DNA from: an uncultured delta proteobacterium
GTDB lineage: Bacteria > Desulfobacterota > Desulfomonilia > UBA1062
Assembly (NCBI GenBank): GCA_963798485.1
Contig: CAWCTR010000007.1
Span: forward strand, 578,043 to 642,042
Direction of reading: 5' to 3'
Length of the DNA: 64,000 nucleotides
Shown: one piece after another, positions 33,794 to 63,066 of the stretch
Position numbering within the stretch: position 1 is the stretch's first letter
How the letters are laid out: every line of letters begins with the position of its first letter
The notes under the pieces: model-generated
What the model saw: the letters and a program-made list of their open reading frames with translations, nothing else
What the model was told of the DNA's origin: nothing
Databases searched by the model: none
Translations under genes and position numbers: made by a program

Positions 33794-36253
33794 TCACCTC
33801 TTCCTTATGCCTGCCGGTTTTTCCCTTCTTTTCTTGTCTTTCCTATGGTCGCCCTTCATCGACTTGTTCTCAGCAAAGCCGGCCCAGGTTTCGGTCAGCT
33901 TGCAAAGTTCTCTGTCAACGAGATCATGTATGGTCCCCCTCTCGAAGCTGCCGTCCTTGCGCCTCGACCCGGCCTTTACACCCGTGAGGATCTCAATGCC
34001 TTCATCGATGCTCGTAACGCTCCAGATAGTGAACTTTTTTGCCTTCACCGCTTCGATGACCTCATCCTTGAGCATGAGGTTCCTGACATTGCTTTCAGGG
34101 ATTATCACCCCCTGTCTCCCGGTGATGCCCATGACCTTGCACACCTCGAAGAATCCTTCGATCTTCTCGTTCACGCCTCCGATGGCCTGCACCTCGCCCC
34201 TCTGGTTCACCGATCCGGTCACTGCGATGCCCTGTCTGATGGGTTTACCCGATAGTGCGGATAATATGGCATAGAGTTCGGTGGAGGAGGCGGAATCACC
34301 GTCGACCCCTGAGTAGCTCTGCTCGAACACGAGCCTGGCCGAAAGGCTGATGGGTTTTTCTTTGGCATAGGCATAGGCAAGATAACCTGAAAGGATCATG
34401 ACCCCCTTGGTATGGATGGGCCCCCCGAGCTTGGCCTCGCGCTCGATGTCTATGACCCCGTCGTGGCCCGGCTCTATGCTTGCCGTGATCCTGCTGGGTC
34501 TGCCGAACATGATATCGCCGAGGTCGATTACGGACAGACCGTTCACCTGCCCCGTTTTTTCGCCATCCACATCGATCTTTATCATGCCCTGAGAGATCAT
34601 CTCTTTGGCCTTTTCCATGAGCAGGTTCGAACGGAGAAAGCGTTCTTCCACCGCCTGTTTTACATGCCTTTCCTGTACCAGCGGCAAATTCTCCTGGGAT
34701 GCATAGAAACTCGCCTCGCGGATCACATTGGCGATCTCGCCGAAGCGGGTCGAGAGTTTATCCTGGTCGGATGCCAGCCTGCAGCTGTGTTCCACCACCT
34801 TTACGATGGCGTCCTTGTCGAAATGGAGCAGGTTCTCTTCCTGGCAGATGCTGCACAGGAACGAGGCATAGCTCTTCATGTTCTCATCGGTGCGTTCCAT
34901 GACAGTATCGAAATCGGCCTTTACCTTGAAGAGGTCCTGGAAATCTTGGTCGAGCTCATAGAGCCGGTAGTAAAGGTTCGGCGTCCCGATAAGAATGACC
35001 TTGATATCCCAGGGTATGGGCTCGGGCATGATGCTCCTCGTGGTCATGAATCCCATGCGCTCTCCTGCCTCCTCGATGCGGATCTCCCGGTTGCGTATGG
35101 CGCGCTTGAGCCCGTCCCAGGAGAAGTAGTTGATGAGGACGTCCTCCACCGGCAGTATGAGGTAACCGCCGTTTGCCTGGTGCAGCGAGCCTGAGCGGAT
35201 CATGGTAAAGTCGGTCAGGAGCGCACCGAACTGCGCCTCTTTCTCGATCCGTCCGAAAAGGTTGTTATAGCTGGGGTTCAGTTCTGTTATGATGGGGGCG
35301 CCTTTGAGCTTGGAGTTGTCTACAAGCACGTTGACCTTGTACTTCCTAAACCTCAGTTCTCCATCCATCATAAAAGGCGTCTCCGGCTGTGGCTGGCTTT
35401 TCTGGTCATCGCCTCTAAACAGGGGTAGGTTCTCGACCATGTCTTCACGAACGGCCTTTAAATGCGATATGATCCCTGTCTGATCGCGGTATTTCTCCAT
35501 CAGGTCGTCCAGCAGGTTGTCAAGGGTGTAGGAGGCGATATCCCGGTCAAGCTTTGCAATCATCTCGTTCACCTTCTTCTCGAGGACAGCCACCTGGCGA
35601 CCCGCCTTTTTGATCAGTTCCTGAAGCTTCCCCTGCTTGCGGGTGAATGCATCCTGTGTCTTCTTGTCCAGCGCGCGGAACTCCTCCTCGGTCATGGGCC
35701 TGTTTTCAACAACGGGAAACGCGAAGAGCCCCATGGGGGTAGCCTGGATGAGGAGGCCCTTCTTGCGTGCGTCCTCATTAACCTTGCTGAAGAGTTCATC
35801 CCGCTGTTCCTGGAACTTCTTGGCCGCCTGGTTCCTCCGAGTCGCGTATTCCTCGCTCTCAAAGGCCTTGACGATCCCCTTGCGGGATGCCTTTACGAAT
35901 TCCTCCACGTCACGGCTGAACTCGTGTGCCGTGCCTGCGGGTATGGATATGGTATTCGGGCGGTAGGGGTCCTTGAAGTTGTTTACATAGCACCAGTCAG
36001 GGGGAGTGGGCTGACCCTTTGCAAGCTCCCGCAGGTAGGCTCTCAAAGCCGTTTTTCTGCCGGACCCTGCGTAACCCGATACATAGATGTTGAACCCTTT
36101 GTTTCTGATCCGAAGCCCGAAGTTGAGCGCCTTCAGTGCCCTTTTCTGGCCGAGGATCGTCTGCAGGGGCTCGGCATCCCTGCTGTCCGTACATCCGAAA
36201 ACACTTGGCTCACAGATACATTGCAATCTCTCCGGGGGTACCTTGCCTGACAT
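33794..36253 (-). CDS. Lon-like protease (LonC/AAA_32 type)
   Basis: GSLHQANGGYL, GQVNGLSV, FEQSYSGVDGDSASS, QAIGGVNEKIEGFF. Confidence 0.92.
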   Translation of the reverse strand: MSGKVPPERLQCICEPSVFGCTDSRDAEPLQTILGQKRALKALNFGLRIRNKGFNIYVSGYAGSGRKTALRAYLRELAKGQPTPPDWCYVNNFKDPYRPNTISIPAGTAHEFSRDVEEFVKASRKGIVKAFESEEYATRRNQAAKKFQEQRDELFSKVNEDARKKGLLIQATPMGLFAFPVVENRPMTEEEFRALDKKTQDAFTRKQGKLQELIKKAGRQVAVLEKKVNEMIAKLDRDIASYTLDNLLDDLMEKYRDQTGIISHLKAVREDMVENLPLFRGDDQKSQPQPETPFMMDGELRFRKYKVNVLVDNSKLKGAPIITELNPSYNNLFGRIEKEAQFGALLTDFTMIRSGSLHQANGGYLILPVEDVLINYFSWDGLKRAIRNREIRIEEAGERMGFMTTRSIMPEPIPWDIKVILIGTPNLYYRLYELDQDFQDLFKVKADFDTVMERTDENMKSYASFLCSICQEENLLHFDKDAIVKVVEHSCRLASDQDKLSTRFGEIANVIREASFYASQENLPLVQERHVKQAVEERFLRSNLLMEKAKEMISQGMIKIDVDGEKTGQVNGLSVIDLGDIMFGRPSRITASIEPGHDGVIDIEREAKLGGPIHTKGVMILSGYLAYAYAKEKPISLSARLVFEQSYSGVDGDSASSTELYAILSALSGKPIRQGIAVTGSVNQRGEVQAIGGVNEKIEGFFEVCKVMGITGRQGVIIPESNVRNLMLKDEVIEAVKAKKFTIWSVTSIDEGIEILTGVKAGSRRKDGSFERGTIHDLVDRELCKLTETWAGFAENKSMKGDHRKDKKRREKPAGIRKR

Positions 36254-38685: not shown

Positions 38686-39182
38686 TAGCCAAGACAGGCT
38701 CTGTGCTCACGGAATCCCAGATGAAGGCCTTGGAACGAGCCAAAGAAGAGAAAATCTCCCTTGGAGAGATAGAGACTGAGCATGTGGGGTACCTGGGAGC
38801 GCAGGACACTTACTATGTTGGCAACATCAAGGGAGTGGGCCGTATTTATCAGCAGACCTTCATAGACACGTATTCTTCAGTGGCCATGGCGAAGGTCTAT
38901 ACCAGCAAGCATCCCATCAATTCCGCTGATTTTCTCAATGATCGGGTTATTCCATTCTTCGATGAAAAGGGTGTGCATCTACTGAGGATCTTGACCGACC
39001 GTGGAACTGAATACTGCGGTAATCCCACTACCCATGAATACCAACTGTTCCTTGCCCTTAATGATATCGAACATACCAGGACAAGGGCAATGCGACCTCA
39101 ATCGAACGGGATCTGTGAGAGATTTCACAAGACAGTCGGGGATGAGTTCTACAGCATTGCTTTCCGGAGAAAGATCTATCTC
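38686..39182 (+). mobile_element. IS481-family transposase internal fragment (DDE core only)
   Basis: QDTYYVG, GRIYQQTFIDTYS, ILTDRGTEYCG, PQSNGICERF; no HTH, C-terminus or IRs seen. Confidence 0.85.
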
Positions 39183-39978
39183 ACAACTTAAATATCTCAG
39201 AGAAAAACACCTTCATATGCTCCCATGAACGTTTATCAGCCTTCTCGTTGTATGCAATGCCGCGAGAAGGCTCCGAGCCTGAGTCGGGGTTGGTGAAGCT
39301 GTGGACAGCCCCTCCGTAGCTGACCATCTGCCAGTCTACCTTTGCCTTGCGCATCTCATCCTGAAATGCGTTTACCTGCATAACAGGAACATTCGGATCA
39401 TCAGCGCCGTGGAGTACGAGCACCTTGGCCTTGATATTCCTGGCATCATCAGGGTTAGGGGTGTCGAGTCCCCCGTGGAAGCTTACTACGCCTGCAATAT
39501 CAGCACCGCTCCTGGCAAGCTCAAGTACTGTCGTACCTCCAAAACAATAACCGATTGCAGCAATCTTTCTCTTATCGGTAAGGCCATGATCCCTTAAAAC
39601 CTGTAACCCCGCATTAACGCGTTCGCGCAGAAGCTTGCGGTCGCCGCCTCTGAACTTTCCTGCACGTGCTCCAGCCTCGGCAGGATCTTTTGTGGAAAAA
39701 CCATTCCCGTAGATGTCCGCAGCAAAAGCAATGTAACCTAAAGACGCCACCTGTACTGTCCGCCTTTTGATATAATCGTTGAGTCCCCACCATTCATGGA
39801 CAAGGAGAACCGCCGGCCTCCTGCCCTTCAATGAATCATCATATGCCAGGTAGCCTACGAGTCGGACGTCGCCGTGTTTGTATGTGATCGCTTCCGTTCG
39901 TATGGCAGCAGAAGATGCAGAAGCCAGCGCTACTATTGATATGGCGCAACAAAAACCGGTTATCGACATACCCCTCAT
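39181..39978 (-). CDS. Dienelactone hydrolase family protein (secreted)
   Basis: Signal peptide; HEWWGLN, GYCFGG, SFHG, HSFT. Confidence 0.92.
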   Translation of the reverse strand: MRGMSITGFCCAISIVALASASSAAIRTEAITYKHGDVRLVGYLAYDDSLKGRRPAVLLVHEWWGLNDYIKRRTVQVASLGYIAFAADIYGNGFSTKDPAEAGARAGKFRGGDRKLLRERVNAGLQVLRDHGLTDKRKIAAIGYCFGGTTVLELARSGADIAGVVSFHGGLDTPNPDDARNIKAKVLVLHGADDPNVPVMQVNAFQDEMRKAKVDWQMVSYGGAVHSFTNPDSGSEPSRGIAYNEKADKRSWEHMKVFFSEIFKL

Positions 39979-50049: not shown

Positions 50050-50916
50050 TTACCCCTGCCCATCCTTATCGTCTTGCTGACCGATTATGTGATTGACTGC
50101 CTTCTGTGCCTGAGCTGCGGCCAGGACAACAAGTCTTGAATCCTTTCTGATCGTGTCCCTCCATCCCTGGATATATGCCGCTGAGTTCTCAAGGGTGGCA
50201 TGAGCAATGCCGGTGATCGCGCACAGGTAGGCAGCTCCCATCTCCGCTATAAGCTCTTCACGGGCGTAGTTCTTCGATCCGAAAGAAGCCGGTGCTGAAA
50301 GGGTTTCACGATTGAGCCGAGAGGCTGAGCCTGTGGCGTGGGTCAACTCATGATAAAGGGTGCTATAATACTCTTCCGGGTTTACAAATGCGGCCTTACT
50401 CGGCATCTTCACCAGGTCTTCAATCGGGTTGTAGCAGGCCTTGATAAATCCATGCTTTATCTCAGGCCTTCCCTGGAAACCGTTCACAATGGCCTCGGCC
50501 TCTTCTATGGGGTTGGAATGGGCTTCTTCCGGCTGGTCAGGGTAGGTTATCCCTTCGCACTGGAGAACATTGAATACCCGGTAGTACTTCAGGAAGGGTA
50601 TATTTTTCTTTTCCAGCGCACCCGTGCCCTCGTTGAGTTCCTCCACTTCCTTGAAGTTCCAGAAAACCACGATAGAGCTTTTTTCTCCCTTCTTGATGGT
50701 CCCTCCGAGGGTCTTGGTCTGGTTGAAGGTGAGCCAGTAAGGAGAGGCATAGCTGGAAGCAAGGAGCAACCATACATTGATCCCTCTATACTTCTTGCCT
50801 GTCATCAGGTTACGGGGAAGCAGGATCTTGCTGTTCCAGGGTTTTCTCCAGGGGATGACACCATTGCCCAGGTGCGTCAGGATTTGTTCGGTCACGATCT
50901 CGAATACGTTTGCCAT
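50050..50916 (-). CDS. ardC: ArdC-family anti-restriction ssDNA-binding / zincin-like protein
   Basis: IPWRKPW, YRGIN, WLTFNQ, VFNVLQ, HELTHATG, YAREELIAE. Confidence 0.92.
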   Translation of the reverse strand: MANVFEIVTEQILTHLGNGVIPWRKPWNSKILLPRNLMTGKKYRGINVWLLLASSYASPYWLTFNQTKTLGGTIKKGEKSSIVVFWNFKEVEELNEGTGALEKKNIPFLKYYRVFNVLQCEGITYPDQPEEAHSNPIEEAEAIVNGFQGRPEIKHGFIKACYNPIEDLVKMPSKAAFVNPEEYYSTLYHELTHATGSASRLNRETLSAPASFGSKNYAREELIAEMGAAYLCAITGIAHATLENSAAYIQGWRDTIRKDSRLVVLAAAQAQKAVNHIIGQQDDKDGQG

Positions 50917-51198: not shown

Positions 51199-51819
51199 AT
51201 GCAAAAACATAAAATGAATGAACCCGCATCCGATAAATCTAAACGGCTCATTAAAGAAAAAGGCGGTATAATTCGCACAACAGAAGCCCTGAAACTAGGA
51301 ATCCATTCCCGTACCCTTTATACTCTCAGGGACACCGGTGTTCTTGAAAAAATTTCACGTGGTGTATACCGTCTGGCAGAACAGAAACCGATATCAAATC
51401 CTGATCTCGTTACTATAGCAATAAGATTCCCAAAGGCGGTCATTTGTCTTGTATCCGCACTGGCATACCATGAAATAACTACTCAAGTACCGCATACAAT
51501 TTCTATTGCCATAGAAAAAGGTGCTGAATCACCCAGAATAGACTACCCCCCTGTATCTGTTCACCGCTTTTCGCGCGAAAGTCTTACCGCAGGCATAGAG
51601 GAGCATGAAATAGATGGCGTAATAGTCCGTATTTACAACCCTGAGAAAACTCTGGCTGACAGCTTCAAGTTCAGAAATAAAATTGGGATGGAGACTGTTC
51701 TTGAGGCACTGAAGCTCTATAAAACACGGAAGAAATTCAACCTTGAAGAACTGATCAAATACGCCCGAATCTGCCGAGTTGATAAAGTTATGAGGCCCTA
51801 TCTTGAGGTGACTGTATGA
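51199..51819 (+). CDS. abiEi: Type IV TA antitoxin, AbiEi family
   Basis: wHTH LEKISRGVY, ICLVSALAYH, YNPEKTLAD. Confidence 0.88.
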   Translation: MQKHKMNEPASDKSKRLIKEKGGIIRTTEALKLGIHSRTLYTLRDTGVLEKISRGVYRLAEQKPISNPDLVTIAIRFPKAVICLVSALAYHEITTQVPHTISIAIEKGAESPRIDYPPVSVHRFSRESLTAGIEEHEIDGVIVRIYNPEKTLADSFKFRNKIGMETVLEALKLYKTRKKFNLEELIKYARICRVDKVMRPYLEVTV

Positions 51820-52724
51820 GTCAGAAAGAAGTTAAGAATATAGCTCAATCTGTCAGACAACGCCTCCTGAACAGGGCAAAGGCAGAAATGCGACCATTCA
51901 GTGAGATGCTCCAATATTTTGCCATGGAGCGATTCCTTTACAGGCTGTCAAAGTCCCAACATGCTGACAGATTCATTCTCAAAGGCGCAATGATGCTCAA
52001 GGCTTGGGGTTCATCAGAATTCAGGCCGACAATGGATATAGATATGCTTGGGAAAACAAACAACGAAGAAACCAACCTCGCTACTCAGATAGAAGATATC
52101 CTTTCGTCTGATGTTGAACCGGATGGACTTATCTTCGACAAAACAAGCATCCAGACAGAACGAATTAATGAAGATGCAGATTATAAGGGTATTCGTATTC
52201 GATTCCTTGGAAAACTGGATTCCGCAAAGATAAGCATGCAGATAGATATCGGCTTTGGCGATATTGTATATCCCATGCCGGAAAGATCAGATCTGCCGAC
52301 CATGCTTGATTTCCCTGCTCCATGTCTTCTTTGTTATAGCCGCGAGAGTGCTATTGCTGAAAAGTTTGAAACGATGCTGAAACTCCGTGAACTGAATAGT
52401 CGAATGAAGGATTTTTATGACATCTGGCTACTTTCCCGCCAGTTCAGATTTGAAGGGAATGTGCTCACTGAAGCCATCAGGCTAACCCTTGAAAAAAGGG
52501 GAACTGACCTGCCTGATGAAATTTCTGCTTTTTCAGAAGAATTTGCCAAAATCAAGCAAGTGCAATGGATAGCCTTCCTGAAAAAACTCAAGCAGGAGCA
52601 CGTACCTGAGGATTTTTCAGAGATCGCAACAACTATAAAAAGCTTCCTTCTTCCTATTGCTATTACACTGAAATCTGTTTCAAAAGCTCCTACCCAATGG
52701 ACCCCACCTGGTCCATGGGAGTAA
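51816..52724 (+). CDS. abiEii: Type IV TA toxin, AbiEii nucleotidyltransferase
   Basis: ERFLYRLS, FILKGA, RPTMDID, AEKFE, SRMKDFYDI; ATGA-coupled to abiEi. Confidence 0.9.
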   Translation: MSQKEVKNIAQSVRQRLLNRAKAEMRPFSEMLQYFAMERFLYRLSKSQHADRFILKGAMMLKAWGSSEFRPTMDIDMLGKTNNEETNLATQIEDILSSDVEPDGLIFDKTSIQTERINEDADYKGIRIRFLGKLDSAKISMQIDIGFGDIVYPMPERSDLPTMLDFPAPCLLCYSRESAIAEKFETMLKLRELNSRMKDFYDIWLLSRQFRFEGNVLTEAIRLTLEKRGTDLPDEISAFSEEFAKIKQVQWIAFLKKLKQEHVPEDFSEIATTIKSFLLPIAITLKSVSKAPTQWTPPGPWE

Positions 52725-52734
52725 TTACTGAGAT

Positions 52735-55734
52735 CTATCTCTCAAAACCTGGACCTCTACTCTTCCCAATATCCTGGGTTAGGTTCTGTGCAATACTCTT
52801 ATTTTGAGCAAGTGTTATCTTATGGCCGTCAAAGGCTACATACCTTCCGGTCTGCATCTGATCGTATTGCTTATTATAGGGGACCATGTACTGAACCCCT
52901 TTTGACTCGATCTTGGCATACTTATTCTCGCCAACCGCCTCTATTCCCGTAAAATATCCTTCAACTGCTCTTTCTCTGGCAAATTCCACGTGGAGACCAT
53001 GGGCTTCCATACGCTCACAGTAATTAAATTCCGACTTATTAAGCTGCTGGTCATATTTTGAAACTCTTTTCTGTTCTTGTCCTTCCTGAGAAATCTGATT
53101 CTGCTTCTCTTTCTCGATGGTTTTACTCCTCACGTCTTCCATCTTCTGGCCGTCATACTCAACCTGACGGAATTTACTCATCTGATCGTATTCCTTGTCA
53201 TAGGGCACCAGGTAACGCACTCCCTTTGTTGGTTCGGCATGGGTATCGATCACGGCATACTTTCTGCCATCGACTTCCTTCACTCCCATATAGTTTCCTT
53301 CCACTGACTTATCCTTGGGGAACTCTACCTGGATTCCCTTCTGTTGCTGCTGTTGACGATACTCTTCCTGTACTCTCAGGTGGAGCTTCTCCTCGATTCT
53401 GCTGTACTTATCCTGGTATTTCTGAGGAAGCCCTTTATCTCTCTCTTCAAGACGCTTCACTGCATCCCGCTTTATTTCCTCATACCCTCTTATCTTCTCC
53501 ATCTTGATGAATCGGTCATCTATCTCAACGCCCCTTGGTAAGCCATAGTCTACGATAAGACCCTTGGGCTGCTCTCTGCCCATGACCTTTTGCAGATCTT
53601 GAAAGTCCTTGAACTCTTCTTTGGCGTAATACATGGTTACATCTTCTCTATGCCTGCTCATGGCAACGTAGGCGGTGTGTTTATCAAAGTGCCTTGAGCC
53701 CAAAACAAAGGTACGGTCGATTGTCGATCCTTGTGTCTTATGGACCGTGGCTGCATATCCGTGGTCGAAGTCCCGGTACATGGTGGTATCAATAGCTACC
53801 CTGTCGCCCTTGTCGAGCTTGACTGCCATGACCCCCCTGCTGATACTCTCCACCGTCCCAAGGGAACCATTCCTCACACCCAAAGAATGCTCGTTCCGCA
53901 GGAAGATGATCCGGTCACCGGTGCTGAAAGTCCTCTCCCCTTTCTCGGTCATGAAGGTATATCCGGCTCCCCTTAGTTCTCCATGTAACTTTCTGTACTG
54001 CCTAGCCCCCTGGTTCAGTTCCGCTACATCTCTGTTTGTGTAGGCCATCATGAGGCTCGTCCCATGGTAGTGTTTATGTTCTGCCTGGTGATCAGCCCAC
54101 TCTTTCAATAACTGCTCCTTGGCCTCTTCCCTGGTCGGGAGTTCCTTGATGTGTCCGTGGTCGTGGTACATTTCAAGGGCCTTCTCCGTCTGTTCCCTTT
54201 TTCCTGAGAACTCTATTGTGGCCTCCTTCTGCCAATCAACCTTCTGCCTTCGTACTTCGGCAAGCTCAACATAGCCGGTCTTCTGGATTATCCCCCGGAA
54301 AGAACCTCCCGCCTCAATGGACTGGAGCTGTTCATTGTCTCCGACCAGGATCACCTTTGTTCTTGACTCATGGGCATACTCAAGGACCTGGTGCATCTGC
54401 CTAGTGCCCACCATACCGGCCTCGTCGATCACCAGGATCTCATCTCGATGGAGCTGGTTACGGTCATTGCTCCAGTCTTCGAGTTGCTTGTAGATGGTCG
54501 TGCTTTCTATCCCGCTTTCGTTCTGAAGACCTTCTGCTGCTATCCCTGAGAGGGCAAGGCCTCTGACCTTGTACCCTTCCGCCTCGTATGCTTCCCGTAC
54601 AGCACCAAGGGTATAACTCTTGCCTGTTCCAGCACGTCCGATCATGACGGCGATATCGCCGTTCTCTATAATTGTCTGGAAGGCCTTCTGCTGTTCATCA
54701 CTCATGGTGTAATTTGCGGCTGTCTGATCGATGATCTCATTCTTTACCTGGTGTCCATGGGAAGTCTTCATCGCTTGTGCGGCATCGAGCATGGCCTTTT
54801 CGTTCATCATCATGGTGCGGGTAGAGAAGAGGTCTTCGCCTTTCTCATTCTTGCCGATCTTCATAAGCTCGGGACTGTTCTCAAGAGCACTGAATACCCG
54901 GTTGAACTGATCCGCGTCCGCACTATACCGGAATGCAAAATCCATGATGTCTTCCCGCTTGAACACGGCATCATAATGCCCTACATGCTTCAACGCTTTC
55001 TCAGGATCGTTGATAATCCGATCTCCATTCTCGCGGCATATCCTCTGGTACTCTTCAAGTTTATCGAGGCCTCTTGTATCCTGGAGGTGGAGATATCCCT
55101 TTGGCAGGTATTTATAGATTCCTTGACCGAGGGTAAGCTTAGGCTCTAGATCAATACCTCTGTCTGCATAGCTCCTATGGTCAACCTGGATATCATGACC
55201 GGCTTCCAGCAAATGCCGGTTTTGTACAACCGCCCACTCCTCACGCCACTTAAGCAGATGAGCTTTATCGTTCCATGATCTTTCCTTTTGTCCGAATCCA
55301 TCTGAGGTAACTTCACGCATGGTAAGCATGATATGGACGTGCGGGTTTTTCTCGCTTTTGTGGATGCAGATATCGGCTATCATCCCCTTATCCACGAACT
55401 GCGTCTGTGCGTATTCCCGCACGAGCGCAATCTGTTGATTGAGGTTCAGCTCTTTAGGGAGAGAGAGTTCAACTTCACGTGCAAGCTGGGCGTCCTTTCG
55501 CTTCTCTTTTCTCTCGGCCTCGTTCCAGAGGGTTTGACGATCTTTCAATATCTCGGGAGCATTTTCCGGGAGAAGGATTTCTGCATGGGCAAGGTCTTTC
55601 TTCTTTGAATAGTCGAACTCCATTCCCTGACGCTCATCATAGAGCTTATCGCGTGAACGGTATGCAGCCGCAGCTACCGAGCTACGCCCGGAGCCTCTGC
55701 TGATAACCTTAACATCGATGTGATAGCACGCCAT
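52735..55734 (-). CDS. traA: Ti-type TraA: MOBQ relaxase fused to RecD-like SF1 helicase
   Basis: AAAAYRS (catalytic Tyr25), CIH...PHVH His triad; GRAGTGKS, IDEAGM, YAATVHKTQG, YVAMSRH. Confidence 0.93.
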   Translation of the reverse strand: MACYHIDVKVISRGSGRSSVAAAAYRSRDKLYDERQGMEFDYSKKKDLAHAEILLPENAPEILKDRQTLWNEAERKEKRKDAQLAREVELSLPKELNLNQQIALVREYAQTQFVDKGMIADICIHKSEKNPHVHIMLTMREVTSDGFGQKERSWNDKAHLLKWREEWAVVQNRHLLEAGHDIQVDHRSYADRGIDLEPKLTLGQGIYKYLPKGYLHLQDTRGLDKLEEYQRICRENGDRIINDPEKALKHVGHYDAVFKREDIMDFAFRYSADADQFNRVFSALENSPELMKIGKNEKGEDLFSTRTMMMNEKAMLDAAQAMKTSHGHQVKNEIIDQTAANYTMSDEQQKAFQTIIENGDIAVMIGRAGTGKSYTLGAVREAYEAEGYKVRGLALSGIAAEGLQNESGIESTTIYKQLEDWSNDRNQLHRDEILVIDEAGMVGTRQMHQVLEYAHESRTKVILVGDNEQLQSIEAGGSFRGIIQKTGYVELAEVRRQKVDWQKEATIEFSGKREQTEKALEMYHDHGHIKELPTREEAKEQLLKEWADHQAEHKHYHGTSLMMAYTNRDVAELNQGARQYRKLHGELRGAGYTFMTEKGERTFSTGDRIIFLRNEHSLGVRNGSLGTVESISRGVMAVKLDKGDRVAIDTTMYRDFDHGYAATVHKTQGSTIDRTFVLGSRHFDKHTAYVAMSRHREDVTMYYAKEEFKDFQDLQKVMGREQPKGLIVDYGLPRGVEIDDRFIKMEKIRGYEEIKRDAVKRLEERDKGLPQKYQDKYSRIEEKLHLRVQEEYRQQQQQKGIQVEFPKDKSVEGNYMGVKEVDGRKYAVIDTHAEPTKGVRYLVPYDKEYDQMSKFRQVEYDGQKMEDVRSKTIEKEKQNQISQEGQEQKRVSKYDQQLNKSEFNYCERMEAHGLHVEFARERAVEGYFTGIEAVGENKYAKIESKGVQYMVPYNKQYDQMQTGRYVAFDGHKITLAQNKSIAQNLTQDIGKSRGPGFER

Positions 55735-55737
55735 AAG

Positions 55738-56676
55738 CTAGTTGTTTTCCTCTTCAACTTTTTGAATGGAGTACAGATCCTCGCCCTTTTTACTTTTCCC
55801 GGTGAGAATGAGATCCTGGCAGTTCGAGAGAGCTTGCACGACTTGCTTATATTGTTCCGTATCGGCACTATGATATTTGGCAAACTTATCGATATCTCTT
55901 CTTTTGAAAACCTCTGCTCGATGCCTGAGAAGTTTTAAGGCCCTTCCAGGTTCTTCGATAATCCTTTCCCCATTTTCTCTTCGTATTCTCTGGTGGTCTT
56001 CAAGCCGGTCAAGTCCTCTGGTGCTTTTAAGAAAATCTCCATCCCTGGTAATATATTTTGACGCATATCCAAGCTTGACTTGAGGTTCAAGATCGATTCC
56101 TCTCTCAACATAACTCCGGTGGTCTACCCTGACATCATAGCCTGCTTCTTCCAACTTCATGTTCTGGATATTCGCCCATTCCTCCCGCCACTTAAATATA
56201 TAGGTTCTGTCGCTCCAGGATCTCTCCTTTTGTCCGAATCCTTCCCCGGTGAATTTCCGCATGGTAAGCATGATTGTAGCGTGAGGATTCGACTCTTTTG
56301 ATATGATGCCTATGTCAGCAATCATTCCCCTATCAACGAAGCTTGCCTGTACGAATTCCCGTACAAGCTCAATCTGCTGCTTAAGGGTCAGTTCCATAGG
56401 AATTGAAACCTCAATAAGCCGGGCAAGCTGAGAATCTTTTCGCTTTTCTCCTCTCTCGACCTCATTCCAGAGGGTTTGCCGATCGAGAAATCTCTCAGGG
56501 ACATTTTCTGGAATTAATATCTCTGAATACGCCAGGTCGGTAAATTGGGAATACCTGTGCGTCTTCCCCAATCTTTCATCGTAGAGTGTTTCTCTTGCAC
56601 GCCATGCTGCTGAAGCGACTGCGCTTTTGCCATCTGATCTTCCAATTTTGCTGATATTTAAATGATAAATAGCCAT
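55738..56676 (-). CDS. MobA/MobL-family relaxase paralog lacking catalytic residues
   Basis: Colinear with TraA aa ~1-305 but ASAAWRA (Y25W) and GIISKESNPHATIML (two of three His lost). Confidence 0.85.
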   Translation of the reverse strand: MAIYHLNISKIGRSDGKSAVASAAWRARETLYDERLGKTHRYSQFTDLAYSEILIPENVPERFLDRQTLWNEVERGEKRKDSQLARLIEVSIPMELTLKQQIELVREFVQASFVDRGMIADIGIISKESNPHATIMLTMRKFTGEGFGQKERSWSDRTYIFKWREEWANIQNMKLEEAGYDVRVDHRSYVERGIDLEPQVKLGYASKYITRDGDFLKSTRGLDRLEDHQRIRRENGERIIEEPGRALKLLRHRAEVFKRRDIDKFAKYHSADTEQYKQVVQALSNCQDLILTGKSKKGEDLYSIQKVEEENN

Positions 56677-56710
56677 TCTCTAGTCCTTACGATGGGTTAG
56701 ATGGATCACG

Positions 56711-56740
56711 CACGTCGCTGGCGACGTATAAGCGTGCCTT
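56711..56740. promoter_or_regulatory. MOBQ-type oriT
   Basis: Hairpin ACGTCGC-TG-GCGACGT followed by ATAAGCGTGCCTT, resembling Ti/RSF1010 nic regions (TAAGTGCGCCCT); lies between divergent mobA and mobC. Confidence 0.75.
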
Positions 56741-56922
56741 TATTACATAAAGTATTGGTTTCTCGCTTTGCTCGGTCATTGGGGTTTAACCTCTTCGTAA
56801 TGTCTTGCAACACGCCCATGCATGGTACAAAGAATAGCATTGAAATATTGTTTCTTGATTTGTTGCTTAATAATATCTATCATTAAAGAGTTCAATAATC
56901 AATACTTTTTAGAGGAGGTACA

Positions 56923-57186
56923 ATGCAATCTAATAAAAAGGCAACACTTGATAAACTTCTGGAGAAGAAGCAAAGGATCGAGCAACAGATTTCCAGTGCT
57001 AAAGCCCGTTTGAAGAAGAAAGATCGAGCCGCAGATACCCGGAAAAAGATCCTTGTGGGCGCATACTTCCTTGAAGTCAAATACAAGGACAAAGAAGATG
57101 AACTGGTGAAGCTTCTGGACGGTTTCCTTGTCCGCGATAATGACCGGGCGCTCTTCGACCTACCCCTAAAGGGTGATGCATCATGA
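56923..57186 (+). CDS. MobC/TraD-like relaxosome accessory protein
   Basis: Coiled-coil then RAADTRKKILVGA; divergent from relaxase across oriT. Confidence 0.75.
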   Translation: MQSNKKATLDKLLEKKQRIEQQISSAKARLKKKDRAADTRKKILVGAYFLEVKYKDKEDELVKLLDGFLVRDNDRALFDLPLKGDAS

Positions 57187-57638
57187 ATGAGCAAGAATTA
57201 ACCGAGGTCAGAGAGAGCATAAGGCGGGAGGTAAGATACGCCCTTACTACTGACATGCAAGAGATCCGTCTTATCAAAGAAAGTCTCGATGCCATTCTTG
57301 CTCAACAGAAACAGAAGATCGATGAGATGGATGAGTTCTTTATCGAGTACTCTCACGAGCAGAAAAAGAGCCAGCAAAACTATCAGGACTCCTTGAAGAT
57401 AATTCTGGGCGAACATAAGAAAATTGCGGATGAAGCTAAATCTCTTTATAAGGACATTAATAACAACACTCAGGAGATTAGGTTAATCTCTACTCAACAT
57501 CAGGAAAAACTCTCATCGTATTATGATTACCTCTTCCTGAAGGTGTTCGGGATTGCTGCCATGGGCGGGTTATTTGCCTTGTTTCTGTATCAACTGTTCT
57601 TTAGATTCATCTACCCTTTTATAAACAGGTTGCTTTAA
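57183..57638 (+). CDS. Coiled-coil protein with C-terminal TM helix
   Basis: ATGA-coupled to mobC-like gene. Confidence 0.6.
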   Translation: MNEQELTEVRESIRREVRYALTTDMQEIRLIKESLDAILAQQKQKIDEMDEFFIEYSHEQKKSQQNYQDSLKIILGEHKKIADEAKSLYKDINNNTQEIRLISTQHQEKLSSYYDYLFLKVFGIAAMGGLFALFLYQLFFRFIYPFINRLL

Positions 57639-57703: not shown

Positions 57704-59975
57704 ACCGGGTAGGTCGGGGGCGTTACCGCCCCGTTCCCCCCTCAGAACCGTACGTGATAGTTTCCCATCATACGGCTCAAGCATCTTTGAAGGCAGCTCC
57801 TGTGGAGCGGCCCGACTGTGATACCTCCTAAGCGGCCTTCATCGCTCGAATCTGTCGAGCAGAGAGGGCCGCAAGCAGTTTGCTTTCCTTTTCATGCCTG
57901 CGCTGCCAGTAGTAAGCAGCGTATTCCGGCAAGTAAGGGTTCGCGTCTGCTTTGATCTTCCTATGCCTTCGAATGCCTATGGTGCATACTCTGAGAACCT
58001 GATATACTTTTACTCGACCTTTGGCATCTTTCGAGCGTACTGCAAATATATGTTTTAGACCCGAGGCTGTCCAGTATTCCTTGATCAGCCATTTCACGGG
58101 CTTGCTCTGATGACGCCTGTGCACCATACGCCACAACTGTTCGAAGACATAGGTGTCGATGCGACAGAAGGCATCCGACGCTGCCACGTGGCGGTGGTAA
58201 TTGGCCCAGCCTCGGAGTGTCTGATTCAACTCCTTGATCAGGACCGGCATCGGCGCGCTGACGTGTTTGCGGATAATCGTTCCCAACTTCCGTACGAGGG
58301 CGAGGACTCCCTCTTTTGCCGGAGTGATGTGCAGCACCCGTCCATGCTTTCGGAAGGTTTGCCCGAGGAACGTAAACCCGTTCTTGATGTAGGTGATCGC
58401 AGTCTTGGCTGGTGATAAGGATAGACCGCGTTCCGCAAGAAACATCTCCACCGCAGGCTTGATGTCTTCTTCCAACAGACGTTTTGATTTGCCTGTTATG
58501 ATGAAGTCATCGGCATAGCGGATGAAGTTGACTCGGCTTCGACGGGGGACTGCACGTTGGATGACCTCCTCCAGACCGTCGAGCGTCATGTTTGCAATGG
58601 TCGGGCTGATTATCCCTCCTTGCGGTGTTCCTCTGCGGGTCGGATACGTTTTGTTGTCTTCCACGTACCCTGCCTTCAGCCACTTGTACAGCACGGTTTT
58701 ATCCATCGGAAGGTTTCTGAGAATCCAGTCATGGGAGATGTTGTCGTAACATCCTTCGATGTCTCCCTCCATCACCCAGGTTGCCGAGTTCGGCTTGGAC
58801 AGGGCATTGAATGCTGCTGCTACTGCATCAGCACACGACCGGCCTTCACGGAAGCCGTAGGAATTCCTGTCGGCGGAAGTTTCCGCTACCGGGGAGAGCG
58901 CCAGCTTGTACAGTGCCTGCATTGCCCGATCCTGCATGGTTGGGATCGATAGAGGTCTTTTCTTTCCATTCTTCTTCGGGATGTAAATCCGCCTGAGCGG
59001 CTGAGGCTTGTAGCCACGTCTGCGCAGGCTGAACGCAGCCCGCCATTTGGCTCGGGCGCTTCGCCACAAGACGCCGTCAACGCCAGGAGTATTCTTCCCC
59101 TTGTTGGAGGTCGCCCGTTTCACAGCCATCAGCTTGGCGTATAACGAGCGGGTTAACAGATAGTGAAGCACCCTTACCTTGTTCCACCTGTTTCCCTTCA
59201 CAGCCTGTGCGATACGTACCTGCAGCCTTCTGACCTGACGCATTAGGACTTTCCAGTCAATGGATTTCCATCTCTTAGCGTCAGCGATGAGTGCACCAGC
59301 TTTATCGGCCGTCTTTTGCCTTCCCATCTCCAAAGGTTCTCCAAGCTCTCTCGCACCAAGACACCGGTCGGACGTCTGCACGCTCTCGTCGGGGCTGCTG
59401 CCACCGGCTTTCGCGTCGGGCCATGTCTCATGCCCTATCCGTAGTATTACCTACGGCCTTTGCTTCTTCCGACTTCTCTTCCCCGCCGCTCCGACAGCAC
59501 GCCTTGCGGTAATGCCTGCCCGGTATTGCACCGGGCGAAATAGCGGGGTTACTGCGTTCTACATAATCGACCATCACGGACAACGTAGGCGGGACTTGGA
59601 CGCCGGTGGCTTATTAGCGGCCCCGTGCAGGCACGTTAACAACCTGCAACCTCACACCACACGTGCAAACACATAAGAAGCACGTCTTAGACCTATTAAT
59701 CCCTGTAGGTCCGTTGCTCGTCTGACGGCGCGTGAAATCCTTTGCCTGTTCTCGCCCTATTGCCCTGACCCTAGCCCTTAACCGAGCGGGATTCTCGGAT
59801 GGGATTCCACCTCACGGCTTCCTCCCGGTTCGGTACATTGTCGGACGGGCTTCACACCCGCTGCACAACGCACAGCACGCATGCCGTCCTAGGGTACTGG
59901 CGGAGACACACCAGGTGATTTCCAGTTTCTCTATCCTCCTATAATCACATTCGATTATGCAACTTCGCATCGCGA
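57704..59975 (-). mobile_element. Group II intron (CL/chloroplast-like class)
   Basis: DV GAGCCGTATGATGGGAAACTATCACGTACGGTTC; DVI ending CCTACCCGGT; 5' end TCGCGATGCGAAG (boundaries +/- 1-2 nt). Confidence 0.85.
57828..59327 (-). CDS. ltrA: Group II intron reverse transcriptase/maturase without HNH endonuclease
   Basis: RVT_N WKSIDW..VRRLQVRI, TPGVDG, GTPQGGIISP, RYADD, X domain LRGWANY; ends after ANPY. Confidence 0.92.
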   Translation of the reverse strand: MGRQKTADKAGALIADAKRWKSIDWKVLMRQVRRLQVRIAQAVKGNRWNKVRVLHYLLTRSLYAKLMAVKRATSNKGKNTPGVDGVLWRSARAKWRAAFSLRRRGYKPQPLRRIYIPKKNGKKRPLSIPTMQDRAMQALYKLALSPVAETSADRNSYGFREGRSCADAVAAAFNALSKPNSATWVMEGDIEGCYDNISHDWILRNLPMDKTVLYKWLKAGYVEDNKTYPTRRGTPQGGIISPTIANMTLDGLEEVIQRAVPRRSRVNFIRYADDFIITGKSKRLLEEDIKPAVEMFLAERGLSLSPAKTAITYIKNGFTFLGQTFRKHGRVLHITPAKEGVLALVRKLGTIIRKHVSAPMPVLIKELNQTLRGWANYHRHVAASDAFCRIDTYVFEQLWRMVHRRHQSKPVKWLIKEYWTASGLKHIFAVRSKDAKGRVKVYQVLRVCTIGIRRHRKIKADANPYLPEYAAYYWQRRHEKESKLLAALSARQIRAMKAA

Positions 59976-60045
59976 TTAACGTTAAAGCTCACTGGCTGCA
60001 ATGGAGCAAAGGGGAAATATCGACCGGTGCAGCGCCTTGTTAGCT
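59974..60045 (-). repeat. attC site 1 (72 bp)
   Basis: R'' AGCTAAC (contains stop codon), L'' GCTGCAC with extrahelical G, L' GTGAGC, R' GTTAATC. Confidence 0.85.
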
Positions 60046-61047
60046 TGTCACTTCAATTTCAAACCCAATCTTCTTGGATTGTTCAATGAACTTCTCGATA
60101 TTCCCTTTACCCCACTGGTTTGAAATTGCATATTGCGTGGAGTCTGGAAACTCAATTATTTCATTTTCCCTAAGAAAATGGCGATAAATACCCTGCCTGC
60201 CGTAAATCCCATGAGCATCACTTACAGGAATAAACATTCCTCCACTTCTAATTTCTTGAGGGAAAGCAATTAATAGCTCAGTTAGATTGTTTGGCTTGTT
60301 CTCTGCTATCCAGTGTTGAATGACAGCCAACACCAACTTTCTTTTATTGTAAGCATTGCCTTGAAAAAAATAGCGCGTGTAATCTTTTGATGATTTCCTA
60401 GCCTCTCTCCTTTCTTCTGACTGTTGCTTAATCTTTACCTGGTAACTTTCCGCTTCTGGTAAAGGAATTATCTGTTGAACATCTATAAGTATTTGACTTT
60501 GGTATTTGTAGGGTATGAATCGAACGCATCGAATATCAATATTTCTTTCATTAAGCCACATCACTGATGTCGTTAGCTCTTTGGAAAAATCAGATGAAAC
60601 CAAAACGATGCGAACATCCAATGCAAAATCGTCCTCTTGTGGTTCCTCCCAGCCCAGAAATTCTAGCAAACTATTTTCTGCATTTAGCTCAACACCTATT
60701 GAATTTAGATATTTTTGATAAATTTCAACTGCACGGCTGAAAGTGAGAGTAGATACCATTGCTGCATACCGCAGTGCTTGCAGCTCCATATTCTCTCCGG
60801 TTTCAGTTCGTTTTAACTCAATGACAACCAGATTCCCCTCTTTATCGACTGCCAGTAAATCAATTCGGCGCTGAGAACCCGACCACTCTGCGAACTCTTC
60901 TGATATTACGAGGCAGTTGGGAGCTACGACAGCAATTTGGTGCTTGAGTGCTAACTGCAAATGATGACGTTCAAGTATTCCTTCACTGTTAAAAGTTGTG
61001 GTATCAACTTTCTGCAACGAATTGTCATTAAAACTATAAATTGCCAT
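60040..61047 (-). CDS. Cassette: NucS/DUF91-like PD-(D/E)XK endonuclease with distinct C-terminal domain
   Basis: RIDLLAVDKEGNLVVIELKR...QALRYA. Confidence 0.78.
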   Translation of the reverse strand: MAIYSFNDNSLQKVDTTTFNSEGILERHHLQLALKHQIAVVAPNCLVISEEFAEWSGSQRRIDLLAVDKEGNLVVIELKRTETGENMELQALRYAAMVSTLTFSRAVEIYQKYLNSIGVELNAENSLLEFLGWEEPQEDDFALDVRIVLVSSDFSKELTTSVMWLNERNIDIRCVRFIPYKYQSQILIDVQQIIPLPEAESYQVKIKQQSEERREARKSSKDYTRYFFQGNAYNKRKLVLAVIQHWIAENKPNNLTELLIAFPQEIRSGGMFIPVSDAHGIYGRQGIYRHFLRENEIIEFPDSTQYAISNQWGKGNIEKFIEQSKKIGFEIEVTS

Positions 61048-61068
61048 GTTCCCCCCGCTTCTTCGTCG

Positions 61069-61100
61069 ACCTAACGTCCGCCTGGATGCCTTTGTTCGAC
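61069..61100 (-). repeat. Truncated attC site 2 (32 bp)
   Basis: GTCGAAC-AAAGGCATCCAGGCGGAC-GTTAGGT: R'' and L'' present, L' and terminal loop missing. Confidence 0.72.
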
Positions 61101-61104
61101 CCTA

Positions 61105-61950
61105 CTACTTACTCGTCCAGTTTCGGTTCAACCCCATTTCCCGGCTTTGTAGTTTGGACTGCCATCGACCTTCCATCCTTAGTATGTCCTTTGTTGTCGC
61201 AGACGTTCCTGCAACTTCCAGAATCGAAATCTGATAATCACTTGGATCGCGACTCTTGAGACCAAGGTTGCCGCCATGACCTGTGTGGACGTAGTCTTGC
61301 CAGCGGCCCCAAAATCCTTCCTCACCAGTCGCAGATCCAACATACTGCTCCTTTGTCTTAGGACATGTAAGCAAGTAGATTCCACGAGAAGATTGGAGGG
61401 CTGTAATCCAGTTCTTTGGGACATTGTTGAGCTTTGATAGCGCTTGGATGAAGTTCAAAAAGCCCGGGAAAGTGGGTTCCTGAAATGCCATGCGCAACTC
61501 AGTGATGGGCTTATCGTTCCGTTCAGCATATTGGACCCACGCGAGTGCTCCCGGTCCCCAATTGATAAATAACCTCCCAATGAGATCACTTAGCGTATTC
61601 TGTATCTTGAGGTCATAGACGTCACAGCTTCCGGCTTCGTCAATACCTTCCATATGAGGTCTGGGGGTGTCTTTTTTTAAAAGTCCTTGATACTGCACAG
61701 CATAAAGTCCAGCAAACATCGTATCATCGTTGAGATTGACAATGAACACTGCCCAGTACGGTGCAGTGAATTTCTTTCGATTCGGGATGCTTTGGTTGGA
61801 TTGGTAAAGCTCAAACTGTGGGCGGTTGTCACGCCACAATTCGTAAGGTGTATGGCCCCTCGTTGCTTTTTTGTCTTTGTGTCGGATAAGGCGAACATCA
61901 GCCAGTGGTAACCCAGCTTCACGCAGGATTGTATTAAACATAATAGACAT
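61105..61950 (-). CDS. Cassette: GIY-YIG nuclease-family protein
   Basis: GIYLL...QYVGSA, GRWQDY, MEGRWQ..L, GLNRN; extended N-terminal domain. Confidence 0.85.
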   Translation of the reverse strand: MSIMFNTILREAGLPLADVRLIRHKDKKATRGHTPYELWRDNRPQFELYQSNQSIPNRKKFTAPYWAVFIVNLNDDTMFAGLYAVQYQGLLKKDTPRPHMEGIDEAGSCDVYDLKIQNTLSDLIGRLFINWGPGALAWVQYAERNDKPITELRMAFQEPTFPGFLNFIQALSKLNNVPKNWITALQSSRGIYLLTCPKTKEQYVGSATGEEGFWGRWQDYVHTGHGGNLGLKSRDPSDYQISILEVAGTSATTKDILRMEGRWQSKLQSREMGLNRNWTSK

Positions 61951-61972
61951 TACACTAACCTCACGTTAATTG

Positions 61973-62033
61973 GTCGAACAGCAGGCATCAGCGCCGCGGC
62001 TCTACAGCGTCCACCTGGATGCCTTTATTGACC
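61973..62033 (-). repeat. attC site 3 (61 bp)
   Basis: R'' GGTCAAT (variant), L'' GCATCCAG, L' CTGATGC, R' GTTCGAC. Confidence 0.8.
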
Positions 62034-63066
62034 TGTAGATCATCTGGTGCTTCCCCTGCCGTTTCTTCAAGAACCTGTTGAATTAAGCCTCGGTACTCAG
62101 AAACAACGTGGTAGTTGTCTTTGGTCTCTCCATGGGCTCCACCTGTCTCGAATTCGATTGCCTGCCGCAGGTGAGGGTTAGACTTCTTAGTTAAAAACTG
62201 AGAAATGTTGCTGAGGTAACGCCCGGCTTGACCTATATCATTGCCTATACCCGCTTCAACAAGGCCTTGCTTCACATTTTCGCGACTATAGGTGCGATCC
62301 TCCTGTATAACAATTTCAAGGAAAGCGCGAAACCGTGGTGTCAAATCGCTTGGTCGAATGAGGGACTGGATGATTCGCTCCTTGAGCTGATCTGCAGGAA
62401 GATTGGAAGCCTCTAGTGAGAAGGAACTTTTTCCAGGAAGTTTCTGTTCTTTCACTTTAACTTCTTTCTTCTGGATGTAGTCCCTTGCTTCGGGTAGGGG
62501 GATAATGATGTCAGCATTTATGAAAATATTTCCCTGTTGGTCAACATGAGGTGTCACGCGGATGCACTCGATGTCGATTATCGCGTCACGCAACCAGAGT
62601 ACCGCCGAAATTACTTCAGAATTGAACTCTTTCGAAACCAATACAATTCTTTGTTTCTCGTTAAGGTCTTCAGGTTCGCAGTCTATGAACTCCTCAATCT
62701 TAACCTGAGCATCATCAACATCCGTGCCAAGGTACTCGGCAAAATACTTGTAGATTTCGTCTTGAGAAAAACTCGAACAGTATGAAGCGTACTTGATTGC
62801 CTGCCACTCAACGTCTGAGCCAGAATCATCCCTCTTGAGCTCAATGATCACAAGTGCGCCCTCCTTGTCCACCGCCAACAAATCAAGACGCCTTCCTGAT
62901 GGAAGTATTAGTTCTTTAGCGATGACCAGTAAGTCCTCACCAAGGATTTCTGGTGTCCCATTGATCCATTCCTGAATATCAAACCGTTCTTTCAGGTTCA
63001 GAAGCACCTAATGATGTCACGGGGATCTTCTACGAGCTTCTCGTTTTCAATGTCCACCTTATACAT
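61988..63066 (-). CDS. Cassette: second NucS/DUF91-like endonuclease; 5' end frame-broken
   Basis: RLDLLAVDKEGALVIIELKR..QAIKYA; AGGAGG RBS + ATG at 63066 (MYKVDIEN) is out of frame with ORF 61988-63007. Confidence 0.75.

Follow-up and report, generated by a model that had tools for sequence, protein, structure and literature searches.

How a relaxase-like gene stripped of its catalytic residues comes to be kept between an origin of transfer and an intact relaxase gene is the question raised by a locus from an uncultured delta proteobacterium of the Desulfomonilia (lineage UBA1062). Relaxases are regarded as the one enzyme that conjugative DNA processing cannot do without. In a stretch of 64,000 nucleotides of contig CAWCTR010000007.1 (positions 578,043 to 642,042 of the forward strand; hereafter the window), an open reading frame (ORF) for a 312-residue paralogue of the TraA relaxase domain, here called the pseudo-relaxase (P0001), stands between a presumed origin of transfer (oriT) and traA. 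An earlier note, made from the letters of this DNA, had proposed that its nicking chemistry was lost under selection and its binding to oriT retained. The selected loss is supported by losses throughout a clade and by a low ratio of nonsynonymous to synonymous rates (dN/dS), and we regard it as probable, if only modestly so, that the pseudo-relaxase is a selected, old duplicate of the TraA domain which acts as a non-nicking, oriT- or relaxosome-binding modulator of TraA, in the manner of a brake or cap. The features on which the argument turns are the following:

52735 to 55734, minus strand: traA, coding for a Ti-type TraA relaxase-helicase of 999 amino acids (P0002); its start codon lies 3 nucleotides after the stop codon of the pseudo-relaxase gene.
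55738 to 56676, minus strand: pseudo-relaxase gene (P0001), a 312-amino-acid MOBQ relaxase-domain paralogue with W25, L87, I125, H132 and T134 at catalytic positions.
Pseudo-relaxase protein, residues 1 to about 190: relaxase fold, followed by a linker and a small C-terminal domain up to residue 312.
56707 to 56741, no strand assigned: oriT core, 31 nucleotides upstream of the pseudo-relaxase start codon.

The ORF had been described as stop-free, colinear with the TraA relaxase domain and ending 3 bp before traA, and this was borne out: it has no internal stop, ends in TAG and is followed 3 nucleotides later by the ATG of the traA ORF, and BLASTP aligned P0001 with P0002 colinearly from residue 1 (176 of 304 residues identical, 58%, one gap, E 5e-122). 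The motifs thought to represent a retained scaffold (DRQTLWNE, KRKDxQLAR, GFGQKERSW and VDHRSY..RGIDLEP) are present in this alignment. P0001 matches the Pfam family MobA_MobL (PF03389) at E 1.4e-65 and passes the NCBIfam model MobQ (NF041496; 238.6 bits, cut-off 200), but remains below the cut-off of TraA_Ti (TIGR02768; 283.8 bits, cut-off 590.45). The protein stops at residue 312, and no AAA_30 or other helicase match was obtained for it in the Pfam and NCBIfam scans. By sequence and fold P0001 is a homologue of the MobA/MobL (MOBQ) proteins; it is not a relaxase-helicase fusion of the kind that characterizes Ti-type TraA. P0002, for its part, matches MobA_MobL, AAA_30 and other helicase domains, reaches 858.6 bits against TraA_Ti (cut-off 590) and is intact at Y25, E87, E89, H125, H132 and H134 as well as at its Walker A (GRAGTGKS) and Walker B (VIDEAGM) motifs. 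A C-terminal extension of P0002 (52735-53400, minus strand; residues about 800-975) contains two copies of a repeat of about 50 residues with the pattern VEG..G...V....KYA.I......Y.VPY.K.YDQM; partner TraAs elsewhere are shorter, with 863-885 amino acids.

Residue equivalences were taken from a phmmer alignment of P0001 to two solved MOBQ relaxases, NES of pLW1043 (PDB 4HT4) and MobA of R1162/RSF1010 (2NS6). The catalytic residues of MobA, as listed in PMC6856555, are Y25, E74, E76, H112, H120 and H122. W25 of P0001 aligns with position 25 of NES and with Y25 of MobA, and the three His of both enzymes align with I125, H132 and T134; MobA E74 corresponds to L87 (E87 in TraA) and E76 to E89. Four of the six catalytic positions are replaced, as only the equivalents H132 and E89 remain. 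The replacement of Tyr25 by Trp and the string GII..PHAT in place of CIH..PHVH of TraA, both pointed out in the earlier note, are exact, and the change from E87 to L87 is a further loss beyond those it listed. P0001 has the fold and motif order in common with NES and MobA and retains the N-terminal MAIYH, the motif II Glu89 and the NP.H core; unlike them, it has Trp for Tyr, Ile and Thr for two His and a hydrophobic residue at the MobA E74 equivalent, and it is encoded as a gene of its own ahead of an intact relaxase.

An AlphaFold model of P0001 based on a 12-sequence alignment had a mean predicted local distance difference test score of 69, confident for residues 1-185, low for 189-241 and moderate for 242-312. 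The best Foldseek matches of this model were NES (4ht4_A; E 3e-18, root-mean-square deviation 1.8, template modelling score 0.90 on target) and MobA (2ns6; E 8e-11). In the solved NES chain 4HT4, residue 25 is Phe, indicating that a MOBQ domain devoid of the Tyr is stable, and the crystal presumably includes oriT DNA. Such laboratory Tyr-to-Phe mutants resemble P0001 in being nucleophile-less domains that still fold; however, they carry a single engineered change and an intact metal site, whereas the loss in P0001 is natural, multiple and conserved.

How widely the loss is shared was assessed by a homologue search in a collection of 5.8 billion proteins, which returned 2,817 proteins at E <= 0.001, the best 120 of which were listed. 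Among these listed matches, eleven relatives (P0003-P0006 and P0008-P0014) were 61-71% identical to P0001, ten of them with 312 residues and one with 307, a partial twelfth relative (P0027) showed 59% identity, and every closer full-length relative was of the same short form. W25 and T134 occurred together in exactly 13 among 267 proteins, namely P0001, the eleven relatives and P0027. A profile search of 1.84 billion 50%-identity representatives yielded one representative for this clade (583.9 bits), the next match being an ordinary TraA of 873 residues (409.2 bits), and no fused form with W25 was found among the best 150 matches.

Three defining catalytic features of relaxases were tested across the clade. 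The motif I Tyr is Trp in the window protein and in 13 of 13 members. The motif III His triad has lost its first and third His throughout, with a residue other than His at position 125 and Thr at position 134 in all 13, and position 132 is His in six members, Tyr in six and Phe in one. With regard to motif II, the E74 equivalent is Leu in P0001 and Glu87 occurs in one of the 13, and E89, the E76 equivalent, is present in all. As the same substitutions are found in 13 of 13 members at 59-71% identity, they reflect more than chance, and the recurrence of the Tyr and His losses in homologues, which had been suggested as a check, holds for the whole clade. Since none of the three features was found intact in P0001, the protein is, as judged from its residues, a MOBQ relaxase homologue that would not be classed as a relaxase, and site-specific nicking with formation of a covalent 5' adduct is predicted to be absent.

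The earlier note had named a lack of homologous pairs as an outcome that would refute its proposal; this outcome did not occur. A metagenome scan, from which the best 80 of 540 confirmed loci were considered, identified the dead gene in three loci, in all of which a full TraA gene lies directly downstream. Together with the window, four pairs are available:

Window: dead gene at 55738-56676, minus strand, 312 amino acids; TraA of 999 amino acids; spacer of 3 nucleotides.
L085: dead gene of 312 amino acids; TraA with its start at 6097, about 862 amino acids; spacer of 1 nucleotide.
L086: dead gene cut by the contig end; TraA of 885 amino acids; spacer of 1 nucleotide.
L087: dead gene of 312 amino acids; TraA of 863 amino acids; spacer of 3 nucleotides.

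In the three loci that are complete at that end (the window, L085 and L087), the oriT core is located 20-31 nucleotides upstream of the dead gene. By position and spacing, and with co-transcription presumed, the gene would qualify as one for an accessory protein, beside oriT and co-expressed with the relaxase, and this placement is repeated elsewhere for the traA spacer in three of three other loci and for oriT in two of two. On the other hand, in 11 related TraA loci the same oriT immediately precedes traA, and there is no dead gene. The genome of the window (G000) contains one dead gene, three intact TraA genes and two broken copies, and, of 122 genomes searched from its class, it alone has the short form; a genome of the same genus (G104) has five full TraAs and no short form. 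The pseudo-relaxase is dispensable across the wider TraA clade. Of the roles put forward in the earlier note (transfer repressor, relaxosome scaffold, nic-protecting cap or decoy), that of a scaffold is accordingly weakened insofar as an essential part was meant.

Further searches gave only full-length TraAs among the best matches in genome contigs, nothing close to the pseudo-relaxase in viral contigs and, in a plasmid collection, neither near-identical DNA nor any protein match of at least 60% identity for P0001 or for two other TraA-like proteins described below (P0136 and P0236). The best named relatives of the TraAs belong to a Desulfomonilia metagenome-assembled genome. The broken TraA copies, with frameshift or stop codons, are situated at 158505-159411 of contig C4 and at 196-1055 of contig C8 of G000 and, together with the three intact copies, amount to five related transfer modules in this genome. 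A candidate remnant of a deleted dead gene in the long oriT-to-traA spacer of L080, a locus with traA and no dead gene (solo), was rejected, as only the 37-nucleotide oriT core matched.

The origin of the pair was addressed with an IQ-TREE tree of 40 rows covering the first 310 residues or so, in which two of 13 solo rows (P0015 and P0016) lack genomic context. The 14 dead rows formed one clade (support 100/99), which was sister (90/83) to a clade of 17 active TraAs of the same lineage (98/98), and both were placed apart from eight TraAs of alphaproteobacterial type. The four partner TraAs were mixed among partnerless ones, so that the label 'partner' needs three changes on the tree. The simplest history would be a single old duplication of the 5' part of traA, followed by repeated loss of the copy or by movement of the cassette. 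Compared with the active clade and the outgroup, Y25W, H125I and H134T are derived in the dead clade; at H40, F108 and R183, the dead clade has retained the outgroup residue and the active clade has changed. In total, both clades conserve the identical residue to at least 90% at 105 of 312 positions, many of them Arg or Lys. Residues 201-312 are basic in the dead clade (mean isoelectric point 9.0, net charge +3.3), as opposed to 6.7 and -1 in active TraAs.

Selection was estimated by the Nei-Gojobori method on four dead genes of known nucleotide sequence (six pairs). In all six pairs the proportion of nonsynonymous differences (pN) was 0.19-0.245, compared to a proportion of synonymous differences (pS) of 0.72-0.82, which is saturated. 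In the two pairs with finite dS, dN/dS was 0.08-0.10, below 1 as anticipated in the earlier note; the alternative outcome, a value near 1, did not occur. The relaxase domains of the partners gave a pN of 0.07-0.17 for the same locus pairs, and by this comparison the dead copy has evolved about 1.3 to 3 times faster than the partner domain but is clearly constrained. These data bear on the view that the gene has no function and is left over from a partial tandem duplication of traA, or that its product still nicks by means of another residue. The colinearity with the 5' end of traA and the end of the protein just where the helicase part begins would be in line with a remnant, and the conserved Y4 and Y42 could be candidates for residual nicking. 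However, 13 stop-free homologues remain intact down to 59% identity, with pN far lower than pS; active relaxases, whose nucleophile is Y25, conserve Y4 and Y42 to the same degree, and the metal site is lost in 13 of 13. We consider this view highly improbable, and a decaying duplicate is effectively excluded.

The second element that is common to these loci is the oriT. An oriT had been proposed at 56711-56740, which overlaps the inverted repeat identified at 56707-56741. Its inner part is a 7-bp inverted repeat (56712-56718 and 56721-56727), and two outer arms of 5 nucleotides (56707-56711 and 56732-56736) pair over a 4-nucleotide bulge and enclose the presumed nic region, which is placed by analogy with the oriTs of RSF1010 and Ti plasmids; a conserved CCTTT tail follows the arms. 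This architecture was present upstream of the first relaxase-type gene in 14 of 14 related loci examined, the window included. In the window, L085 and L087 this first gene is the dead one; the 11 solo loci have traA in its place. A similar oriT lies about 25 nucleotides upstream of the annotated traA in the Sphingobium plasmid pTK6. In a 14-sequence alignment of the cores (A6), 94.6% of cells were in standard pairs, compared to 82.4% in shuffled controls, and six of 12 pairs showed compensatory change, two of them in the outer helix. The covariation score was reached by none of 500 shuffles, and controls slid along the sequence were 7-57% paired. Covariation and pairing therefore indicate that the presumed nic region belongs to an extended stem under selection, and it may be sequestered in the hairpin form of oriT. 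A promoter scan was uninformative: it gave 8 sites where 6.8 were expected, and none in the minus-strand interval from oriT to the divergent gene.

One column of the oriT alignment separates the paired loci from most of the solo ones and raises the issue of interference between co-resident siblings, in which the pseudo-relaxase would block the transfer of rivals by binding related oriTs or docking on the coupling protein of a shared helper, the element's own oriT being an escape variant. All three paired loci that have an oriT show C at column 37, and nine of the ten related solo loci show T there, compensated by a change on the opposing arm. Sibling elements do share genomes, with three intact and two broken TraA copies in G000 and five intact ones in G104, and mating-pore genes were not seen within the window or the analysed flanks of L085 and L087. 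In G000, VirB4-like and coupling-protein-like genes were found solely on another contig (C4). However, the C variant is also found in the solo locus L080 and in the unrelated plasmid pTK6, the loci are related so that the association comes down to about two independent contrasts, and both the tight coupling to traA and the position next to its own oriT point to action in cis. We consider such interference unlikely.

The preferred reading is that of a non-nicking modulator of TraA. The pseudo-relaxase goes back to an ancient duplication of the N-terminal part of a Ti-type (MOBQ2) TraA, comprising relaxase domain and linker; it retains the relaxase fold and has lost the nucleophilic Tyr, two of the three metal-binding His and one motif II Glu. 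Selection maintains its gene at the head of an operon next to oriT, where its translation is coupled to that of traA, and its product would recognise the oriT hairpin and the nic region, or the relaxosome assembled on it, without cutting. By occupying this site it would limit or time nicking by TraA, as a competitive brake or a cap, and it may also repress the operon, whose promoter region contains oriT. A brake appears more likely than a helper, because the relaxase's own binding surface should compete with the relaxase, because the pseudo-relaxase is translated first in the operon and because relatives manage without it. That it would be a modulator rather than a core part is suggested by the 11 related TraA loci and by G104, all of which lack the gene.

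The opposite sign is nevertheless conceivable. As a positive subunit of the relaxosome, the dead domain could hold or melt the oriT hairpin, or could serve as a non-catalytic second protomer for a relaxase which, as a MOBQ enzyme, has a single Tyr; one copy would then stay on the 3' side or on the restored nic site as long as TraA is covalently bound, and transfer would become more efficient. Position and coupling are those of classical accessory genes, with the gene first after oriT and coupled to traA in four of four loci, the fold and the 105 shared conserved positions are retained, and MOBQ systems normally have accessory proteins that promote a single-stranded state at nic (PMC6856555). 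Still, we hold a positive role to be rather unlikely, as the 11 related TraA loci have the same oriT architecture without the dead gene, as loci free of it already possess the gene for an 87-residue accessory protein (see below), and as a protein sharing the DNA-binding surface of TraA is expected to compete with it.

Several observations weigh against the preferred brake or cap. D41, E52, E87 and H132, all conserved in active relaxases, are relaxed in the dead clade, as is C123, which is conserved only in the local active clade (Asn in the outgroup); some of these positions may contact DNA, so that affinity or specificity may have shifted. For residues 242-312, conservation is lower in the dead clade (0.69) than in active TraAs (0.86), and the net charge of the relaxase core is about zero in both clades and hence uninformative. 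Genomic context is known for four loci only, eight other clade proteins being without it. We infer the binding of oriT DNA by the pseudo-relaxase from its fold and its conservation, and the sign of the effect on transfer, negative as opposed to positive, is likewise conjectural. A complex prediction for residues 1-310 of TraA with the pseudo-relaxase (score 0.00, mark 0.32) counts neither for nor against binding.

The genes around the pair give some indication of the type of element involved. On the far side of oriT and beyond the 3' end of traA, the window contains:

50050 to 50916, minus strand: gene for an ArdC-type anti-restriction or zincin protein, identified by domain scan.
56923 to 57186, plus strand: gene for a basic protein of 87 amino acids, divergent from oriT, with a strong Shine-Dalgarno sequence.
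57183 to 57638, plus strand: gene for a coiled-coil protein of 151 amino acids with a hydrophobic C-terminal segment, overlapping the 87-residue gene by 4 nucleotides.

The 87-residue protein is likely a relaxosome accessory protein. It matched no Pfam or NCBIfam family, is 78-79% identical to proteins at the same position in L085 and L087, and was found by tblastn in 14 of 19 related loci, paired and solo alike; among the five misses, L086 and L089 have too little upstream sequence to be judged. A relationship with TraD was not supported, as there was no similarity to the two annotated TraD proteins of pTK6 and no family match. The 151-residue protein has copies of 57-62% identity in four of the 19 loci, all of them solo, gave a sub-threshold match to TcpC-like_C (E 0.0015) and may be a membrane-anchored transfer accessory. 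In L085, the element comprises a tyrosine integrase, an HTH_17 excisionase-like gene, DUF2958, ArdC, the 87-residue gene, oriT, the dead gene and TraA, and genes resembling host metabolic genes follow past TraA. Given the lack of mating-pore genes, L085 looks like an integrative mobilizable element, and the carriers in general look like small elements of this kind.

The gene for ArdC accompanies the module of pseudo-relaxase and TraA in the window, L085 and L087, and this co-occurrence in all three complete loci touches on another explanation, namely that the pseudo-relaxase is itself secreted through the type IV system of a helper and acts in the recipient, where it would protect or position the incoming oriT end or counter defence. 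Relaxases carry translocation signals, the relaxase domain and the linker region are kept, and ArdC is an anti-restriction protein of a transferred type. As no translocation signal is defined for the pseudo-relaxase family and the whole C-terminal half of TraA is absent from it, we regard secretion as very unlikely.

Other features were observed in this part of the window. An AbiEi/AbiEii type IV toxin-antitoxin pair (51199-52724, plus strand) is located between ArdC and the 3' end of traA. The divergent pair of accessory genes is immediately followed by a gene for a group II intron reverse transcriptase/maturase (RVT_N, RVT_1 and GIIM; 57828-59381, minus strand), which may mark an intron insertion inside the transfer module. 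At 60040-63007 (minus strand), two adjacent proteins of about 335 amino acids with weak matches to NucS/MmcB-like nuclease domains are encoded, with an unassigned protein of 281 amino acids between them. The G+C content falls from about 0.55 to 0.43-0.50 from around position 36000 to the end of the window, except for two 2-kb windows at 0.52 and 0.55; this drop may represent the edge of a mosaic island, and a transposase fragment is present at 38703-39191.

Loss of catalytic residues was also observed in other TraA-like proteins. A family of about 487 amino acids (P0236, P0241, P0220 and P0271-P0388) consists of the relaxase domain and the first helicase half; the query P0236 has at least 668 matching proteins at E <= 1e-80, and 117 of 121 relatives examined were short, with a median of 488 amino acids over all 121. 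Y25 is kept in this family, Ala, Val or Leu occupies position 87 (the MobA E74 equivalent), most members have Arg or a gap at position 125, positions 132 and 134 are variable, Walker A is degenerate and most members have DGAEM instead of the Walker B sequence DEAGM, whereas four full-length relatives (810-844 amino acids) have all canonical residues. The sources name these proteins TraA or MobQ relaxase. The family may constitute a second, independent kind of pseudo-relaxase; it was found neither in any analysed locus, nor in the 2 plus 400 genomes searched, nor in viral contigs. Scattered losses occur in P0136 (a stand-alone form of 310 amino acids without a close family; L25, R125 and D134), P0176 (H25) and P0017 (F25), and two of the three His are lost in P0162, P0190 and P0209; where position 25 is lost in this set, it is L, H, F or S. 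A quick tree placed these proteins on separate branches, P0136 with an ordinary TraA representative at a support of 99, and they may be independent dead forms or decaying genes. Taken with the family of about 487 residues, the losses in other TraA lineages suggest, at the level of sequence, a phenomenon wider than one clade. It would go considerably further to propose that dead relaxases are an unrecognised, recurrent class of conjugation factors that includes this family, with P0001 as a dominant-negative weapon which clamps sibling oriTs while its own oriT escapes by a compensated two-base change in the nic-proximal stem, and to this proposal we give little credence.

Full-text literature searches turned up neither a described catalytically dead relaxase paralogue nor a tandem dead/active pair, in agreement with the earlier note, which knew of none. 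Known systems come close in different respects. Ti-type TraAs (TIGR02768; MOBQ2), the neighbouring P0002 among them, share 58% identity with P0001 over residues 1-304 and have a similar oriT upstream, and the clade of P0001 is the sister of the local ones; P0001 differs from them in having no helicase part, in falling below the cut-off and in the loss of catalytic residues. The TraI protein of the F plasmid contains a vestigial, inactive RecD-like helicase domain kept for binding, which, as P0001, is a dead duplicate of an enzymatic module within a relaxase system; however, it is fused within one polypeptide, whereas P0001 is a separate gene for a dead trans-esterase. Classical accessory proteins have unrelated folds, ribbon-helix-helix and others. 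P0001, unlike them, is relaxase-derived and would be expected to share the relaxase's binding site. Accessory proteins such as MobC, TraJ/TraK, TrwA and NikA are small and non-catalytic modulators of nicking encoded next to oriT, a role described in PMC6856555, and the gene of P0001 likewise adjoins oriT. Two relaxases on one plasmid are described as rare in PMC9185392, which also states that inactivation by point changes could not be assessed there.

Genome surveys score any MobA/MobL match as a relaxase and label the element that carries it as mobilizable. P0001 passes the family thresholds and yet is predicted to be unable to nick, and selection has kept it at a fixed site, with oriT on one side and the real relaxase on the other. 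Current annotation mis-scores genes of this kind, as the MobQ cut-off is passed and as some members of the clade are named exoDNase V or TraA. If the pseudo-relaxase is indeed a brake or a competitor, it would be a novel means by which mobile elements regulate or contest transfer and would provide a natural model for relaxase inhibitors.

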